Shown: positions 53,647-59,355, counted from the first letter of the stretch. The stretch: 60,554 nt of DNA from a virus (IMGVR_UViG_3300028585_000006:1-60554); one strand, 5' to 3'. The notes: a model not told the origin generated them from the sequence alone. Program-made: numbers and translations.

Positions 53647-53904
53647 TCACGCGGTGGGGGCGGGTGAGTCGCGGGTGATTCGCTCTTGCCGGGTCCAGCG
53701 GATCCAGTTCCGGAGGTACACCGACCCGAAGGCGATCGCCGAGAGGCAGAAGCCGTACTGCGCCGTCGTCGCGCCGAAGATCATCCAGATGATCTGCGTC
53801 GACCCGCCGACGAGCCATGCCATCTTCGACCTGTTCCCGGAGAGGATCAGCGACCAGATGCCGCCTCCCGCGAGGATGAACGAGAGGGCGGTCGCCCAGC
53901 TCAC
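53647..53904 (-). CDS. Small three-TM membrane protein (PnuC-like half transporter)
   Basis: AWLVG...W...AQYGF......VYLRNWIRW pattern. Confidence 0.6.
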   Translation of the reverse strand: MSWATALSFILAGGGIWSLILSGNRSKMAWLVGGSTQIIWMIFGATTAQYGFCLSAIAFGSVYLRNWIRWTRQERITRDSPAPTA

Positions 53905-54016
53905 TCGGAGAGCCAGCGACGGCGCCGTGAGCGGTCGAAGACGTCCCGCTTGAGGAGCCGGATGGAGATCGTGCCGAACGTGCCCCAGATCAGCGCAGCG
54001 GCGATGAGGCCCGCGG

Positions 54017-54280
54017 TCACGACGTCGTCCGGATCTGCGCGGAGACCTCGAAGATCGGGTCGCGGCCGTCCTCGGTGTCGAGCTCCTCGACGTGCACCTC
54101 GAGCGAGCCGAGATCGACGTGCTCGTCGTGCTCGAGGCCCGGGCCGACCATGTTCATCAGGCCCTTCATCTGCTCGGCGATCGCCGTGTTGACGACGAGC
54201 AGGTTCGGGTGCCGCCACGAGTAGCGGTGCGACGCGCGCAGCACTCCCGGGGCGCTCGGTCGGGGGGTGGTCACGGTCAC
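54017..54280 (-). CDS. Hypothetical protein
   Basis: GTGA-coupled to the ParB-like gene. Confidence 0.6.
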   Translation of the reverse strand: MTVTTPRPSAPGVLRASHRYSWRHPNLLVVNTAIAEQMKGLMNMVGPGLEHDEHVDLGSLEVHVEELDTEDGRDPIFEVSAQIRTTS

Positions 54281-55185
54281 GAGATCTCCTTGGCGGCGAG
54301 GCGTTCGATGGCCTGCCAACCAGGCATCGAGGTGTCACCCGCGCGGACCTTGTCGACGGCCTTCTTGATCGTCGCCGCGGCGCCGGCCGGTGCGTTGAGC
54401 CCGAGGATACTCGACAGCGGCACCCAGTTGGAGTGCTTCGCGGTCTGCTTCTCAGCATCCCACCAGCCCTCCACGATCTCGGTCTTGTGGCGGTCGAAGA
54501 CGTCGAGGATCAGGTCGAGCACGGTGGCGACGTTCTTCACGTTGTAGGCCTCGCTGACCTCGGCGAGCGCGTCGAGTACTCGGGCGTGGGCGGCGTAGCG
54601 CGCGACCCACGTCGAGTCGGCCGACGTGAGCGCCATCGCGTCCTTCACGGTGTCCTCGAGCTTCTGCAGCTCGTCGGGCAGGAACACGATCGTCAGCGTC
54701 TGGAACTCGAGGTTGGCCTCGCTCATCGACGCCGGCTGCACCTGGTCGAGGAGGTCGAGGGTCTTGTCGTCGAGGGCCGCGTAGTCGCGCCAGTCGATCT
54801 CGTCGAGCTGGTCGTAGAGATCCTTGAGGATCGCGGGGTCGTCCTCGCCGGCGATCGCGTTGTGGCTGAGCTGGATCGCGACGCGGCGCTGCGGGGAGAG
54901 GATCTCGTCGATCGCCATGACGTCAATCTCGACCAGGCCGACCTCGACCGCGGCCTGCGTGCGGTGGTTGCCGGAGAGGACCTCGTAGCGGCCCTCCTCG
55001 GTCATCGCAACAAGGGGCACGCTCGTGAGCCGGCCGTCGCGCTTCACGTTGTCGACGAGCTGCTGGAACTGCTCGTGACGCATGAACCGGGCGTTGACGT
55101 CGAGGATCTTCAACTCGCGCGGGTTGATCCGGATGATCCGGGTGTCGAGACCCTCGATCGGGTTCTCAGGACTCGAGGGTGCCAT
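54277..55185 (-). CDS. ParB/Sulfiredoxin-like N-terminal domain protein
   Basis: NARFM..FQQLVDNVKRDG...YEVLSGNHRTQAA...HNAIAGEDD. Confidence 0.88.
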   Translation of the reverse strand: MAPSSPENPIEGLDTRIIRINPRELKILDVNARFMRHEQFQQLVDNVKRDGRLTSVPLVAMTEEGRYEVLSGNHRTQAAVEVGLVEIDVMAIDEILSPQRRVAIQLSHNAIAGEDDPAILKDLYDQLDEIDWRDYAALDDKTLDLLDQVQPASMSEANLEFQTLTIVFLPDELQKLEDTVKDAMALTSADSTWVARYAAHARVLDALAEVSEAYNVKNVATVLDLILDVFDRHKTEIVEGWWDAEKQTAKHSNWVPLSSILGLNAPAGAAATIKKAVDKVRAGDTSMPGWQAIERLAAKEIS

Positions 55186-56569
55186 CGTCTTCTCCGTGCT
55201 TCTTCTTCCAGGTTTCGTAGCCCTCGGCGAGGGTCCACGCGCCCATCTCGGCGCCGTACTGCAGCGCGTAGCCCTGGGCGTAGTACTGCTCGCTCGCGTC
55301 GGCGCCGGCCGCGGCAGGCTCGGTCTCCTGGCGCTTGAGCAGCTTGAACACGCCGCGGTACTTCATCGACGCGGGGCGCTTCGAGAACGCCGTCGTCGTG
55401 AGCGACCGGCACCGGCGGTTCGCTGACCGCTCGGCGAGGATCTGCGCCTCCTTCGACATCGCGGCGTAGAGCATCAGCTTCGCGAGGCGCGGGTAGCTGG
55501 TCTCGGACACGGGGAAGTCGCTCAGGAGGTAGATGTGCGGGCCGTCGATGTAGCTGTCCCAGTTCGCCATCGTGGGCGAGCTCGAGAACGCGATCGCGCC
55601 CACGAGCACGCCGTCGACGAGCACGCCGAGGGGCAGCGTCGCCTGACCGGGCTTGATGTTCCGGTTCATGTACATGCTCCGGACGGCGGAGAACTGCTCG
55701 CCGGTCAGGGGCATGAGGGCGAGCTTCTCGCCGAGCTTCTGGCCGCGCTTGATGTGGGGGACCAGGAGGGGGGAGGTTGCCTGCCGCGGCTTGATGATCC
55801 GGCGGTGCTCGGACGACCCGTAGACGCACACCTCGACGCCGCGGTTGCTGGTCTGCACGATGCCGCGGAGGTGCGGCTCCATCCAGTCGAGGCGCTCGTT
55901 CACGCACAGCATCCAGTTGTCGCGGTCCATGATCTTGCCGAAGAGCTCGTAGATCCGCTCCTTCGTGAGCATCTCGAAGCTCGGCCGGTCGTGCCAGTCG
56001 AACAGGCTCTCCATCTTGGCGAACTGGCTCTCGTAGTCGCCGGCGAAGAACGGCGGGTAGGAGACCACGCCGGCGTCGGCCGGCACGTCGTCGATCCACG
56101 TGCTGACGTCCTGGATCGCGAACGACTCGAGGCGCATCTTGGCCTTGGCCGACTTGATCCGGCTGATCGTCTGGGCCATCATCCGGTCCCACTGCAGCTC
56201 GTGCGCGTCGCGGATCCGCCCGTAGTACGGGTTCGAGTCCTCCTTGCCGAGGCCCTGCGCGAGCCGGGAGGCGATGAGCAGCGTCGCCAGGCGCTCCTCG
56301 TCGGTCCCCATCGTCTGAGCCATCCACGGGTACGCGTCGACGCCGACCTTGCTGAGGGTGTAGTCCGTCATCGCGTCGGCCAGGTACGAGCCCATCGCTG
56401 CGCTGTAGAGCAGGATGTCGTTGCCGTTCAGGCGCTTGTGGGTGTCGGCGATGACGCGCTCGACGGTGAGGTTCCCGGAGCACCCGATGAACACGTCCTC
56501 CGTGTCCCAGGACCGCACGTGCTGGTGCGTGATCCTCTGCAGGTCGCCCGGAATTGAACCTCTGAACAC
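55166..56569 (-). CDS. Putative DNA modification enzyme: amino-methyltransferase-like domain fused to Mom-like GNAT domain
   Basis: Motif I-like VFIGCSGNLT, motif IV-like VVSYPPF; C-terminal GVLVDGVLVGAIAF..IYLLSDF..LAKLML..TTAFS..SMKYRG. Confidence 0.72.
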   Translation of the reverse strand: MFRGSIPGDLQRITHQHVRSWDTEDVFIGCSGNLTVERVIADTHKRLNGNDILLYSAAMGSYLADAMTDYTLSKVGVDAYPWMAQTMGTDEERLATLLIASRLAQGLGKEDSNPYYGRIRDAHELQWDRMMAQTISRIKSAKAKMRLESFAIQDVSTWIDDVPADAGVVSYPPFFAGDYESQFAKMESLFDWHDRPSFEMLTKERIYELFGKIMDRDNWMLCVNERLDWMEPHLRGIVQTSNRGVEVCVYGSSEHRRIIKPRQATSPLLVPHIKRGQKLGEKLALMPLTGEQFSAVRSMYMNRNIKPGQATLPLGVLVDGVLVGAIAFSSSPTMANWDSYIDGPHIYLLSDFPVSETSYPRLAKLMLYAAMSKEAQILAERSANRRCRSLTTTAFSKRPASMKYRGVFKLLKRQETEPAAAGADASEQYYAQGYALQYGAEMGAWTLAEGYETWKKKHGEDDGTLES

Positions 56570-56591
56570 GGCTGCTCCCCGTTGTGAAGAT

Positions 56592-56665
56592 TGGAGCGCG
56601 GGAGAGGATTTGAACCCCTACGAGCCAGCTGGAAGCCGACCATGCTGCAGTTACATCACCCGCGC
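56592..56665 (-). tRNA. tRNA-Gly (anticodon UCC), non-canonical D-loop, encoded CCA
   Basis: Manual cloverleaf: acceptor GCGCGGG/CCCGCGC, D arm ATGT-AACTGCA-GCAT, anticodon arm GTCGG-CTTCCAG-CTGGC, T arm AGGGG-TTCAAAT-CCTCT, discriminator T, CCA. Confidence 0.92.
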
Positions 56666-56704
56666 GTTCCGCCACCGTAGCAGACCGGATCCGCGACACG
56701 CGAA

Positions 56705-56728
56705 CGCCCCCGCCAGGAGACGGGGGCG
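56705..56728. promoter_or_regulatory. Hairpin between DUF488-like gene and tRNA
   Basis: CGCCCCCG-N8-CGGGGGCG. Confidence 0.45.
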
Positions 56729-56741
56729 CTGCGGTCGGTGG

Positions 56742-57257
56742 CTAGAACAGGGGCTCGAGGGCGCCGCCCGGCTCGGGCCGGGTGAAGTACCGCTCGTCGT
56801 GCTTGGCGTCGTAGTACGCCGGCTTGCCGCTCGAGCGGGGCGCGCGCTGCGATGCGAGGAGCGGCGGCCGCGCCTCGTCGACGACCACGTCGCGGGCGAG
56901 CATCCACTCGGCGAACATGCGCCGGTGGCACCACTCGCCCTTGCCGACGTTGCACCAGCAGAGGAGCACGAGGGGCACGCCGTTCGGGTGCTCGTCGGTC
57001 GGCGGGCGTTCGTCGGAGAGGCGCTGCAGGTCAGCACGGATGCGGTCCTCGAACTCGTCGAGGCGGGCCGTGTAGGCGATGCGGTACGGGAACTCGTCGC
57101 GGTACTGGGGCTTGCCGAAGATCCCGGCGGGGGTGATGCCGGGCACCGTGGGGATGCCCGCCATCCAGCGGGCTGGCTTGACCGCTGTGTTGATCGCCGC
57201 GCCCATGCCCGGCTTGAACGCCGAGAAAGAGCTGGTGAGGAGTGGGTTGATGGTCAT
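56742..57257 (-). CDS. DUF488-family-like protein
   Basis: LVLLCW......CHRRMFAEWM motif; leaderless start 6 nt after TAAACT. Confidence 0.7.
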   Translation of the reverse strand: MTINPLLTSSFSAFKPGMGAAINTAVKPARWMAGIPTVPGITPAGIFGKPQYRDEFPYRIAYTARLDEFEDRIRADLQRLSDERPPTDEHPNGVPLVLLCWCNVGKGEWCHRRMFAEWMLARDVVVDEARPPLLASQRAPRSSGKPAYYDAKHDERYFTRPEPGGALEPLF

Positions 57258-57261
57258 GGAA

Positions 57262-57804
57262 TCAGTTTACCTTACCCGGGTTGAGAATGATGATGTGAGG
57301 TGACTCGTGATCGAACCGGTAGCCCGTGTTCTTCCCGCTGACGAGCACGCCGGCGTACCCGTCGAGCTTCTTGCGGATCCGGAGCACGAGGGTGCTGATC
57401 GTGCTGACCGGCTGGGGTCGGTCGGGGTTCAGCCGGCGGGCCAGCTCGGCGCGGAACACGAAGCCGTCGGCGGCCATCAGCTCGCGGAGGATGCGGACCT
57501 CGGTCGGGGGGAGACGCTTCGGGATGCCGTTCACGCGGATGATGTTGTGGGCCAGGTCGAAGACGACGGGGCGCTCGGCGAGACCGGTGTCGGCAAACGA
57601 CTTTTCGTAGACGAGCTCGCGCTGCAGCTCGCTGACGATGGTCGACGTCGCCGGCACGATGAGGCCCTGGGAGTGGACGCGCAGCTCGGCCTTCGGGTCG
57701 AGGAGCGCCAGGCCGGCCTTGACGAACTCGACCAGGCGCTCGATGTCGGCCTTCTGCATGGTCTCGGACCCGACGTAGATCGCAACGCCGTTCGCGCGTC
57801 TCAC
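57262..57804 (-). CDS. OmpR/PhoB-type winged-helix transcription regulator
   Basis: KRLPPTEVRILRELM..VFRAEL...STLVLRIRKKL...GYRF. Confidence 0.8.
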   Translation of the reverse strand: MRRANGVAIYVGSETMQKADIERLVEFVKAGLALLDPKAELRVHSQGLIVPATSTIVSELQRELVYEKSFADTGLAERPVVFDLAHNIIRVNGIPKRLPPTEVRILRELMAADGFVFRAELARRLNPDRPQPVSTISTLVLRIRKKLDGYAGVLVSGKNTGYRFDHESPHIIILNPGKVN

Positions 57805-58097
57805 GCCTTGCTCCGGGAGGCGCGGCCGCGGATCCGGACGTCGGCGATCGCCCGCACTCGCGAGCCGTGCGCAACGAGGGCAGGCGGGTTGAACTGGGTA
57901 TCGACCCGGATCGCGAAGCTGTCGTCGAGACCGATCTCTGTTGCGATGTAGTCCGTGATCGTTCGGCCCTGCAGCTGCAACTGCATGACCTGGGCGTCGG
58001 TGATCGTCGCTGTGATGCTGTCAATTCGCCGCGGGGTGGGGAGTTGGCGGACGAGGATTGTCGCCGCCTGGCGGGCTGGTGTGGGCTTGTTCGGCAC
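57801..58097 (-). CDS. Hypothetical protein
   Basis: 98 aa ORF with GAGGAG RBS. Confidence 0.65.
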   Translation of the reverse strand: MPNKPTPARQAATILVRQLPTPRRIDSITATITDAQVMQLQLQGRTITDYIATEIGLDDSFAIRVDTQFNPPALVAHGSRVRAIADVRIRGRASRSKA

Positions 58098-58120
58098 GGT
58101 GTGCTCCTCTGGGGGGTAGG

Positions 58121-58156
58121 CCGAAGGCCCCGACCGGGGGGAGTCGGGGCCTTCGG
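58121..58156 (-). terminator. Strong hairpin after surface-protein gene
   Basis: CCGAAGGCCCCGAC...GTCGGGGCCTTCGG perfect 14-bp stem. Confidence 0.7.
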
Positions 58157-58167
58157 GGTTCGGGTGG

Positions 58168-59355
58168 CTACGCGCGGTGACGAGCGCGCACGCGGGGGAG
58201 GACGACGCCCGCGACGCCGGCGAGCGCGAGGGCCAGGCCGGTCGCGATCCAGCCGGTGACGTCGGCCGAGCCCGTGTAGGCGAGGCCGTCGGTGCTCGAG
58301 GCGGCCGAGACGTGCTTCGCGGCCGGCTTGGCCTCGAAGGTCACCGGGGTCGCGTCGACCACGGGGGCGATCGTGACGGGGACGATGACGGGCGTGGTCA
58401 CGGGGACCTCGTCGACGGGGGTCTCGGGCACGGTCGGCTCCTCAGGGGTGACGGGCGGCACGCTGCAGTCCTGCGAGCCGGAGACCAGGTGGTGCTTGAC
58501 GTACAGGTGGCTGTCCTCGCCCTCGGTCAGGGTGTCGTCGGCCAGCACGGCGTCGATGTCCGCGATGTAGCCGTGGTAGACGTCGACCTGGTACTCGCCC
58601 TCACACGCTTCGGCCACGATCTGCTTGCTGACCGCGTCGAGCTGGTCGCCCTCGGCGATGCTGACGAGGAGCTGGTCGTACGCGACCGTGCCCGGCTTGG
58701 TGCCCTCGGGCATGAGCCACGCGACCGTCGCCGTGACCTTCTCGCCGGGTGCCGGCGTGGTCGGGCCGTCGGTGCCCTCGTCGGGGGCGTCGGTCTCGGG
58801 GTCGGTGACCACGGGGTCCGTGCCTTCGTCGACGGGGTCGGCGGGGTCGGCGGGGTCGGTCGGCGCCGGGTCGACCGGGTCCGTGCTCGGGGCCGGGTCG
58901 ACCGGAGCCGGAGTCTCGGTGACGGGCGGCGTGACGACGGGCGGGACGTCGACCGGAGGCGCGACGACGACGGGGTCGACGAGCACGGGCTTGCAGTCGG
59001 CGGCCGCGGTGAAGCTCCACGACTGCCCGGTCGACGCGGTGATCGAGTAGGCGGCGCCGGAGGCCGGGATCGAGAACAGCGCGCTGCGGGCCGTGCTGTG
59101 CGGCGCGACCGTGACGACCTGCGGCGGGGTGCCGTCGCTGATCGTGTAGGTGGTCGCCGTGTCGGCGCCGAGCGCGTCGAGGACGAACTGCGTGACGCGG
59201 TCGGTGGCCTCGCACGAGTCGCTGTAGTTCTGGACGTAGACCTGGCCGGAGCCGTCGGTGGCCGACGCGGCCGCCGCGGTGCCGAAGACGAGTCCGGCGC
59301 TGGTGAGGCCGACGGCAACGGTGCCGGCGGCGAGCTTCTTGACGGTGGTGTGCAT
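58168..59355 (-). CDS. Secreted, sortase-anchored (LAXTG) surface protein
   Basis: Sec signal peptide ending AAAASA, Pro/Asp/Thr-rich linkers, LAYTG + TM helix + RVRARHRA tail. Confidence 0.85.
   Translation of the reverse strand: MHTTVKKLAAGTVAVGLTSAGLVFGTAAAASATDGSGQVYVQNYSDSCEATDRVTQFVLDALGADTATTYTISDGTPPQVVTVAPHSTARSALFSIPASGAAYSITASTGQSWSFTAAADCKPVLVDPVVVAPPVDVPPVVTPPVTETPAPVDPAPSTDPVDPAPTDPADPADPVDEGTDPVVTDPETDAPDEGTDGPTTPAPGEKVTATVAWLMPEGTKPGTVAYDQLLVSIAEGDQLDAVSKQIVAEACEGEYQVDVYHGYIADIDAVLADDTLTEGEDSHLYVKHHLVSGSQDCSVPPVTPEEPTVPETPVDEVPVTTPVIVPVTIAPVVDATPVTFEAKPAAKHVSAASSTDGLAYTGSADVTGWIATGLALALAGVAGVVLPRVRARHRA

Follow-up and report, generated by a model that had tools for sequence, protein, structure and literature searches.

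Why would a virus encode exactly one tRNA and place its gene immediately ahead of an enzyme gene? The question is raised by IMGVR_UViG_3300028585_000006:1-60554 (the window, i.e. the whole stretch of DNA analysed, 60,554 bp), a virus genome that CheckV rates 100% complete, with direct repeats at its ends and a GC content of ~70%. Its structural genes show ~70% nucleotide identity to those of Microbacterium phage ValentiniPuff and match Arthrobacter phages more weakly; the virus is an actinophage. On the minus strand, a tRNA-Gly(UCC) gene with an encoded CCA (56592–56665) is followed by a 22-nt spacer (56570–56591), in which direct reading of the sequence finds a GGGGAG ribosome-binding-like motif, by a GTG-initiated gene (55166–56569, stop included) for a 467-aa protein, and by the gene for a 302-aa ParB/Srx-like protein (54277–55185). 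The 467-aa protein, here called the fusion enzyme, joins a Dam-like N-half to a GNAT-fold C-half. ARAGORN, Rfam and the open reading frame (ORF) list agree with the first-pass annotation of this sequence that the tRNA is the only one in the genome and sits within a co-oriented run 22 nt before the fusion gene (the CCA stops at 56592 and the GTG begins at 56569). That annotation had further proposed that the tRNA is a co-substrate for glycylating phage DNA bases rather than a codon supplement. We now consider it fairly probable that the tRNA-Gly, the fusion enzyme and the ParB-like partner together form a system for post-replicative DNA modification in which the tRNA is a dedicated, non-decoding glycyl carrier.

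Conservation of the tRNA–enzyme–ParB order

A tblastn search of 50,697 phage records for relatives of the fusion enzyme returned 15 records, from four Gordonia and eight Mycobacterium phages (some phages being present as two records), and pattern scans returned at least 163 viral-contig and 178 genome-contig relatives. The 163 loci studied below comprise 3 phage records, the best 80 of the 163 viral-contig relatives and the best 80 of the 178 genome-contig relatives; a few contigs occur in both collections. They hold 158 near-full-length enzymes, the window's included, of which 144 are distinct. Genome loci are labelled Streptomyces, Micromonospora, Actinoplanes, Nonomuraea, Kitasatospora and Embleya, while loci from metagenome-assembled genomes, into which phage contigs can be misbinned, are labelled Oscillospiraceae, Clostridia, Selenomonadaceae, Chloroflexi/Anaerolineae, Synergistaceae, Myxococcales, Dormiibacterota and Paceibacterota.

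A tRNA-Gly-like gene is present in 125 of the 163 loci according to ARAGORN, run over 1,135,186 bases of related loci, and a covariance model, R1, that was built from 43 ARAGORN-called tRNAs and then used to find further copies. The gene lies at most 400 nt upstream of the enzyme gene on the same strand in 116 of these loci, farther upstream in three, upstream on the opposite strand in two and downstream of the ParB gene in four; the median tRNA–enzyme gap is 77 nt, as compared to 22 nt in the window. Its placement and strand relative to the enzyme gene are kept at enzyme identities down to 33%. Counted by enzyme, the tRNA accompanies 110 of the 144 distinct sequences, across all major branches of the tree and with at least 10–14 state changes. 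A ParB-like homologue lies downstream of the enzyme in every locus (83/83 and 80/80, together 163/163). The order tRNA, enzyme, ParB (hereafter the module) recurs in most of the 163 loci and is more than chance. The first-pass annotation had staked its proposal in advance on an enrichment of tRNA-Gly at homologous loci, and this is what the loci display: apart from the presence counts, 113 of the 115 ARAGORN calls are Gly or Gly-like, 107 of them Gly outright (67 UCC, 29 CCC and 11 ACC) and six with 2- or 4-base “anticodons” yet Gly-type acceptor stems. The other two calls are 89-nt “tRNA-Arg(CCT)” genes that lie downstream of the module, on the opposite strand, in two Micromonospora loci (L130 5842–5930 (-) and L137 5836–5924 (-)).

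Mycobacterium phage Cepens offers an annotated case, with a tRNA-Gly just upstream of its enzyme homologue and a ParB-like gene after it. In the Gordonia phages Jollymon (L001 4821–4894) and Clawz (L002 4823–4896), tRNA-Gly-like genes directly upstream of the fusion gene are unannotated; these copies have a non-canonical T-loop, differ at position 34 (C versus U), and were missed both by ARAGORN and by Rfam at gathering score. Rfam at that score also gave no match in L005 or L032, although the L005 copy scored 38.3 bits in a separate RF00005 search. A first look with RF00005 at whole records missed tRNAs in Cepens and in the L018 genome that ARAGORN calls, and its negatives are unreliable for such deviant tRNAs. 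R1 adds copies in six genome loci that ARAGORN missed. Tandem tRNA-like duplicates occur upstream of the enzyme in L016 (1478–1626), L024 (2761–2924), L081/L082 (about 2805–2970) and L126 (2772–2923), the L126 pair having the anticodons CCC and ACC. ARAGORN calls no tRNA other than that of the module in the complete genomes of four phages (the window, L005, L018 and Cepens), and the Jollymon and Clawz genomes hold just one degenerate, unannotated tRNA-Gly-like copy each. When R1 was run with filters off on 23 tRNA-less loci in search of degenerate copies, it returned only acceptor-stem-like UCCA hairpins, which we set aside as chance matches. These mimics of the tRNA-Gly acceptor stem lie at L033 5465–5494, L061 373–396 and L067 5570–5641 (-), with E values of 0.09–0.8; they are probably fortuitous, microhelix-like donors being the alternative.

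Conserved and decayed positions of the tRNA

The window tRNA is the sole Rfam match at gathering score in the window (RF00005, 43.4 bits at 56595–56665 (-)) and the only R1 hit there (75.9 bits). Its acceptor stem starts G-C-G, its discriminator is U73 and its D-loop lacks GG. The alignment of related tRNAs draws on 105 model hits, 101 of them distinct, and supports a cloverleaf: 98.5% of cells are paired, as compared to 68.1% after shuffling and ~40% with partners slid, and two-sided changes are found in 554 cells, as compared to 159 in shuffles.

Near-invariant positions in the 101 copies are G1 (100/100), C2 (100/100), G3 (100/101) and C70 (99/101), and fixed along with them are G71, C72 and U73 (101/101 each), C35 (100/101) and C36 (101/101). 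The first three acceptor pairs are constant as pairs (G-C in 100/100, C-G in 100/100 and G-C in 99/101), and pairs 4–7 covary freely. The bacterial glycine identity set is reported to consist of G1-C72, C2-G71, U73, C35 and C36 (PMC9976931). The fixed positions of the module tRNA match this set, as would fit a tRNA kept chargeable by glycyl-tRNA synthetase.

Features that are near-universal in elongator tRNAs, namely U33, a purine at position 37, a 7-nt anticodon loop, G18G19 and T54-psi55-C56, fare differently in the same copies. At position 34, 67 copies have U, 18 have C and 15 have A, and this base varies even among near-identical Streptomyces prophages. U33 is found in 72 copies, a purine 37 in 87, U55 in 78 (G55 in 21) and the D-loop GG in 43; several anticodon loops have 8 nt or 4 nt. 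All canonical decoding and elbow features occur together in only 18 of the 101. The enzymes nearest to that of the window after L004 are those of L005, a phage with a complete 61-kb genome, and L006 (56% and 51% identity), and in the tRNA-like genes of both a 4-nt loop closes the “anticodon” arm. Comparison of the module tRNA with the host tRNA-Gly genes in four Streptomyces genomes gives 58–65% identity; the canonical host genes, inspected by eye, keep GG, U33 and TTC. Two odd chromosomal tRNA-Gly(UCC) genes lie away from the module in Streptomyces (L210 in G005, near 3.946 Mb, and L212 in G006); one has a TGC-type T-loop and stands beside canonical tRNA-Gly(GCC) genes, and the other has A3-U70.

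With decoding features decayed and synthetase identity elements fixed across 101 copies, the earlier view that this tRNA is not a codon supplement holds up well, and we think it likely, more so than the full proposal, that its function is tied to the enzyme and not to translation.

The fusion enzyme and its neighbours

The fusion enzyme matches phrog_7858 (8e-80). A Pfam scan of the whole protein at E ≤ 0.1 finds only PF22555 (DAM-like-phage1, 6e-76) over residues 2–273 (55751–56566, minus strand) and PF22559 (GNAT-phage-like, 4e-52) over residues 281–459 (55193–55729, minus strand), with no match to the Mom family PF25680, for which Mu Mom itself gives 2e-75. A full-length AlphaFold2 model made from a 59-sequence alignment has a predicted local distance difference test score (pLDDT) of 92.4 and a predicted template modelling score of 0.71; alignments of 59 sequences also underlie the column statistics given here for the enzyme and for the ParB-like protein.

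In this model, the N-half is a Dam-type Rossmann methyltransferase fold, its structural matches being T4 Dam in a DNA-bound form (1yfl_A, Z 13.9, 192 residues aligned, root-mean-square deviation (rmsd) 4.9), E. coli Dam (2ore_D, Z 13.6) and DpnM (Z 12.3). The standard catalytic motif of amino-methyltransferases is (D/N/S)-P-P-(Y/F/W). Here motif IV reads [F/Y]PPF: its first residue is F in 36 sequences, Y in 22 and H in one, with an invariant P-P (59/59), and the window enzyme has Y-P-P-F-F in place of D-P-P-Y. The description of this half as amino-methyltransferase-like, made in the first-pass annotation, is thus borne out by fold and by PF22555, and fails at the catalytic motif, from which the D/N/S is absent. 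Given the altered motif, methyl transfer is doubtful, and it is the fold that points to adenine N6 as the target. In motif I, C30-S31-G32-N33 is invariant, as is D51, so an adenosine-type pocket may persist.

Modelled alone, the GNAT domain has a pLDDT of 93.9. Of 48,161 PDB representatives, Mom (8bv8_B) ranks first against it (VIA-align Z 11.0, rmsd 3.5, 153 residues aligned), and Foldseek pairs the two with an E value of 2.3e-4 and a probability of 1.0. The C-half is a GNAT fold in this model, as the first-pass annotation had staked its proposal on, GNATs being found both by Foldseek and by structure comparison. Its further label, “Mom-like,” stands at the level of fold, with Mom the top match, and falls at the level of sequence, at which the hhalign probability is 5%. 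GNATs usually carry a coenzyme A (CoA) pyrophosphate-binding Q/RxxGxG/A loop; the stretch where it is usually found (columns 354–366) has no conserved glycine in this family, and S401, K403, Y404 and R405 are invariant. A hidden Markov model search of PDB sequences gave chance hits to sigma-54 only (E 0.3). The GNAT half also matches positions 652–768 of phrog_2443 (“amidoligase enzyme,” 801 positions) at 7.8e-5, a hint from sequence that the same GNAT family may also be fused to an amidoligase.

The gene for the ParB/Srx-like protein overlaps the end of the fusion gene by 20 nt (55166–55185), and its product matches phrog_7405 (9e-71) and ParB-like PHROGs (1e-11), in keeping with the earlier account of an overlapping ParB-like gene; its match to Pfam ParB_N (8.5e-5, 23 bits) is under the 26.3 cut-off. 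S71-G72-N73-H74-R75 is invariant in this protein and fits the GxxR nucleotide-binding motif of the ParB/Srx N-terminal domain. A phage ParB is reported to activate a DNA-modifying thymine dioxygenase and to be needed for its activity on double-stranded DNA (PMC13229309), and phage ParB–methyltransferase loci are already known (PMC4738411 and PMC12704722).

Upstream of the tRNA, and on the same strand, lies a gene for a 171-aa DUF488-like protein (56742–57257; phrog_2450, 4e-9). A homologue is found in 65 of the 163 loci, on the same strand in all of them, and the gene is a facultative upstream neighbour. The label DUF488-like is best treated as a lead: its support comes from ESM Atlas neighbours (DUF488-N3a/DUF488, score 0.93, TM 0.62), in which DUF488-N3a is carried by 11–43% of members for three feature-search hits and by 16–100% for structure-search hits with a family, and Pfam gives no match at E ≤ 0.1, the DUF488 families being PF04343 and PF22751. 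A leaderless promoter had been proposed ahead of this gene. A consensus scan of 53800–58200 finds no promoter-like site, and no terminator-like site either, and the ATG follows by 4 nt the stop of a co-oriented gene (57262–57804) for a 180-aa ORF with a weak winged-helix Trans_reg_C Pfam match (9.4e-5, below cut-off), so such a promoter is not required. The 76 nt that separate the tRNA from the DUF488-like gene (56666–56741) fold into a long GC-rich hairpin without a T-run (minimum free energy -47.1 kcal/mol, z -3.65, none of 200 shuffles equally low) that could be a terminator-like or RNA-processing element. On the far side of the ParB-like gene, an 85-aa ORF (53647–53904, minus strand) matches phrog_2421 (3e-18) and, below cut-off, the N-terminal part of PF04973 (5.9e-5), the nicotinamide mononucleotide transporter family.

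Proposed function, alternatives and known systems

Mom is reported to move glycine from Gly-tRNA-Gly onto adenine N6 in double-stranded DNA, after which the adduct rearranges to carbamoylmethyl-adenine (PMC13219725; also bioRxiv 10.1101/2023.03.24.534169); the donor that the first-pass annotation had named for Mom is thus in print. By analogy, the module tRNA would be transcribed either together with the enzyme mRNA or shortly before it, and then excised, and host glycyl-tRNA synthetase, whose identity elements persist in it, would charge it. The charged tRNA would serve mainly or only as glycyl donor to the GNAT domain, like host Gly-tRNA-Gly for Mu Mom. The Dam-like domain, since the D/N/S of its DPPY motif is gone, would most likely bind DNA and flip the target adenine instead of transferring a methyl group, and the ParB-like protein would most likely load or activate the enzyme on double-stranded DNA. 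The expected product would be an N6-adenine adduct derived from glycine in phage DNA, either glycyl or its rearranged carbamoylmethyl form, that blocks host nucleases and might so protect the phage from restriction. A bolder version, held tentatively, is that a virus tRNA-Gly lineage has been freed from the genetic code and retained solely to carry aminoacyl groups for DNA hypermodification by a methyltransferase scaffold turned aminoacyl transferase. The Dam-like half would then flip the adenine, its old adenosine pocket perhaps holding A76 of the charged tRNA, while the GNAT half would catalyse transfer and the ParB-like clamp would bring the enzyme to double-stranded DNA.

Several observations weigh against the carrier proposal. 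No tRNA-like gene was found in 38 of the 163 loci (33 with none, and five with none but <300 nt of upstream sequence), among them a whole Streptomyces/Kitasatospora prophage clade; around the Kitasatospora copy there is no tRNA-Gly within ~18 kb on either side, the 39 kb holding only a tRNA-Thr. The 163 loci are interrelated, so that their counts are not independent events, and R1 was derived from ARAGORN hits themselves. A minority of the tRNAs (18/101) look fully canonical, and the window copy keeps U33, A37 and TTC; with only the D-loop GG absent, it could also decode. The L005 copy has lost C35 and C36. On the protein side, the Dam-like catalytic motif is altered in 59/59 sequences, and the Z score of Mom is tied within 1 unit with those of three unrelated GNAT entries (e.g. 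SbzI 10.6 and 1y9k 10.3). Sequence kinship to Mom, tried with hhalign, was rejected at probabilities of 0.5% (4-sequence alignment), 0.5% (59-sequence profile versus Mu Mom) and 5.2% (versus a 35-sequence Mom alignment).

Of the alternatives, the one that survives best retains the Gly-tRNA donor and changes the acceptor, which would be some other base, a nucleotide, RNA or a protein, for instance the ParB-like partner. The tRNA linkage is silent on the acceptor, the DPPY motif is altered throughout the family, and GNAT enzymes that use aminoacyl-tRNA are reported to modify peptides, lipids, proteins and natural products (PMC13219725). We nonetheless find this unlikely, in that the N-half best matches DNA adenine methyltransferases, including DNA-bound T4 Dam (Z 13.9), Mom is the top GNAT match, and the ParB-like partner is present in 163/163 loci, with the reported precedent of a phage ParB acting on double-stranded DNA (PMC13229309).

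A second alternative makes the tRNA-like RNA a substrate or cofactor, with the GNAT half acetylating Gly-tRNA-Gly, the Dam-like half methylating the tRNA, or the RNA acting as scaffold or guide. The toxin TacT is reported to acetylate Gly-tRNA-Gly, reading U73 and G71 (PMC9976931); both positions are invariant in the phage tRNAs too, and conservation of the acceptor end alone cannot separate a donor from a substrate. C35 and C36, however, are fixed as well, which fits charging by the synthetase; the GNAT half lacks the conserved glycine-rich CoA loop; the Dam fold and ParB partner suggest DNA; and a virus would have no obvious gain in encoding a toxin-like enzyme together with its target. We judge this improbable.

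Lower still we place an ordinary decoding tRNA-Gly for GGA/GGG codons that stands beside the enzyme gene by descent only. ARAGORN and Rfam accept the window copy, the fully canonical minority would suit such a role, and GGA, with 34 of 1072 Gly codons in the 64 window ORFs, is rare enough in the phage that a supplement could help. Yet the Gly isotype is kept in 113 of 115 calls over host labels that span several phyla, the wobble base drifts among U, C and A even between near-identical prophages, U33 is absent from 29 and U55 from 23 of the 101 copies, some loops have 4 or 8 nt, and position and strand beside one gene persist down to 33% enzyme identity. Hardly credible is an integration relic or tRNA-dependent lysogeny, with the gene as attachment site or as substitute for a disrupted host tRNA-Gly, for although many actinophages are reported to insert in tRNA-Gly genes and some phages to carry a replacement tRNA (PMC10865867), the window, a complete virus genome that ends in terminal repeats, has no match to integrase families PF00589 and PF00239, its tRNA is full length and adjoins the enzyme gene, module tRNAs are only 58–65% identical to host tRNA-Gly, and the replacement cases described in that source are Lys, Ile2 and Leu, not Gly.

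Returning to the dedicated glycyl carrier, tRNA-dependent DNA modification was established recently, for Mom alone and with host tRNA, and the module suggests that this known kind of chemistry, tRNA-dependent GNAT modification of DNA, has a new component, a virus-encoded tRNA dedicated to it. A literature search found no paper describing the Dam-like/GNAT fusion or its tRNA, and PF22555 and PF22559, though both exist as Pfam families, are named in no paper found; an earlier mention is possible in the survey of DNA base modification systems by Iyer et al. 2013 or in the supplements of PMC13219725. If the proposal is right, tRNA-dependent DNA modification would be far commoner than known, given at least 163 relatives in viral contigs and 178 in genomes, and in the bolder version the module would be widespread in phages and prophages of hosts labelled Actinomycetota, Bacillota, Chloroflexota and other groups; the chemistry would also have evolved a second time, independently, on another GNAT family joined to a Dam scaffold. 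It would also mean that viruses encode tRNAs for use outside translation, such that single “orphan” phage tRNAs should be reread, and, in the bolder version, would provide the first “non-proteogenic” tRNA devoted to DNA modification, one sharing a transcription unit with its transferase. The tRNA set would be a natural series from decoder to pure carrier, teaching collections already contain phages suitable for tests (Cepens, Clawz, Jollymon and relatives), and a compact enzyme-plus-tRNA system could put amino-acid handles on DNA.

The closest functional comparison is with Mom, which is likewise a phage-encoded GNAT; the use of tRNA-Gly was shown by biochemistry for Mom (PMC13219725) and is implicated by gene linkage here. 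Mu Mom has an essential R111 and S124 and a helix-turn-helix-like insert, stands alone, and can use any host tRNA-Gly isoacceptor, every E. coli isoacceptor being reported to serve and recognition of the acceptor end being suggested by the authors (PMC13219725). The fusion enzyme, by contrast, has no sequence homology to Mom, is joined to a Dam-like domain, has a constant ParB-like partner and usually its own tRNA, whereas 43 loci of Mom relatives (85–100% identical; 199,455 bases) contain no tRNAs. The Mom authors also raise the cost of tapping translation's Gly-tRNA pool (PMC13219725), and the module looks like a second, independent answer to that cost.

A close parallel is the staphylococcal non-proteogenic tRNA-Gly, which is reported to have TGC or TGT for TTC in the T-loop, to bind EF-Tu poorly and to supply Fem transferases (PMC7826273). 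The likeness to that tRNA and FmhB/FemA/FemB comprises an extra tRNA-Gly that is chargeable by glycyl-tRNA synthetase and poor in translation, a GNAT-fold transferase, and the T-loop TGC itself, present here as the G55 of 21/101 copies. As described there, the staphylococcal system is cellular, acts on a peptidoglycan precursor and has its tRNA genes apart from its enzyme genes, whereas the module is viral, has the tRNA directly upstream of the enzyme, and displays far deeper decay (U33, D-loop and loop length).

With the alpha-class methyltransferases T4 Dam, E. coli Dam and DpnM the fusion enzyme shares fold and motif order (Z 12.3–13.9 over about 190–200 residues), and it departs from them in the [F/Y]-P-P-F of motif IV (59/59) and the C-S-G-N of motif I. 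ParB-dependent thymine dioxygenase and ParB–methyltransferase loci resemble the module in that a ParB-like gene adjoins a post-replicative DNA-modifying enzyme, and differ in having, in their published descriptions, a 2-oxoglutarate dioxygenase or a plain methyltransferase and no tRNA. TacT is likewise a GNAT, reported to recognize the acceptor end of tRNA-Gly by its U73 and G71 (PMC9976931); such toxins, however, acetylate the charged tRNA with acetyl-CoA and halt translation, whereas here the same element supplies the tRNA, and the context suggests DNA.

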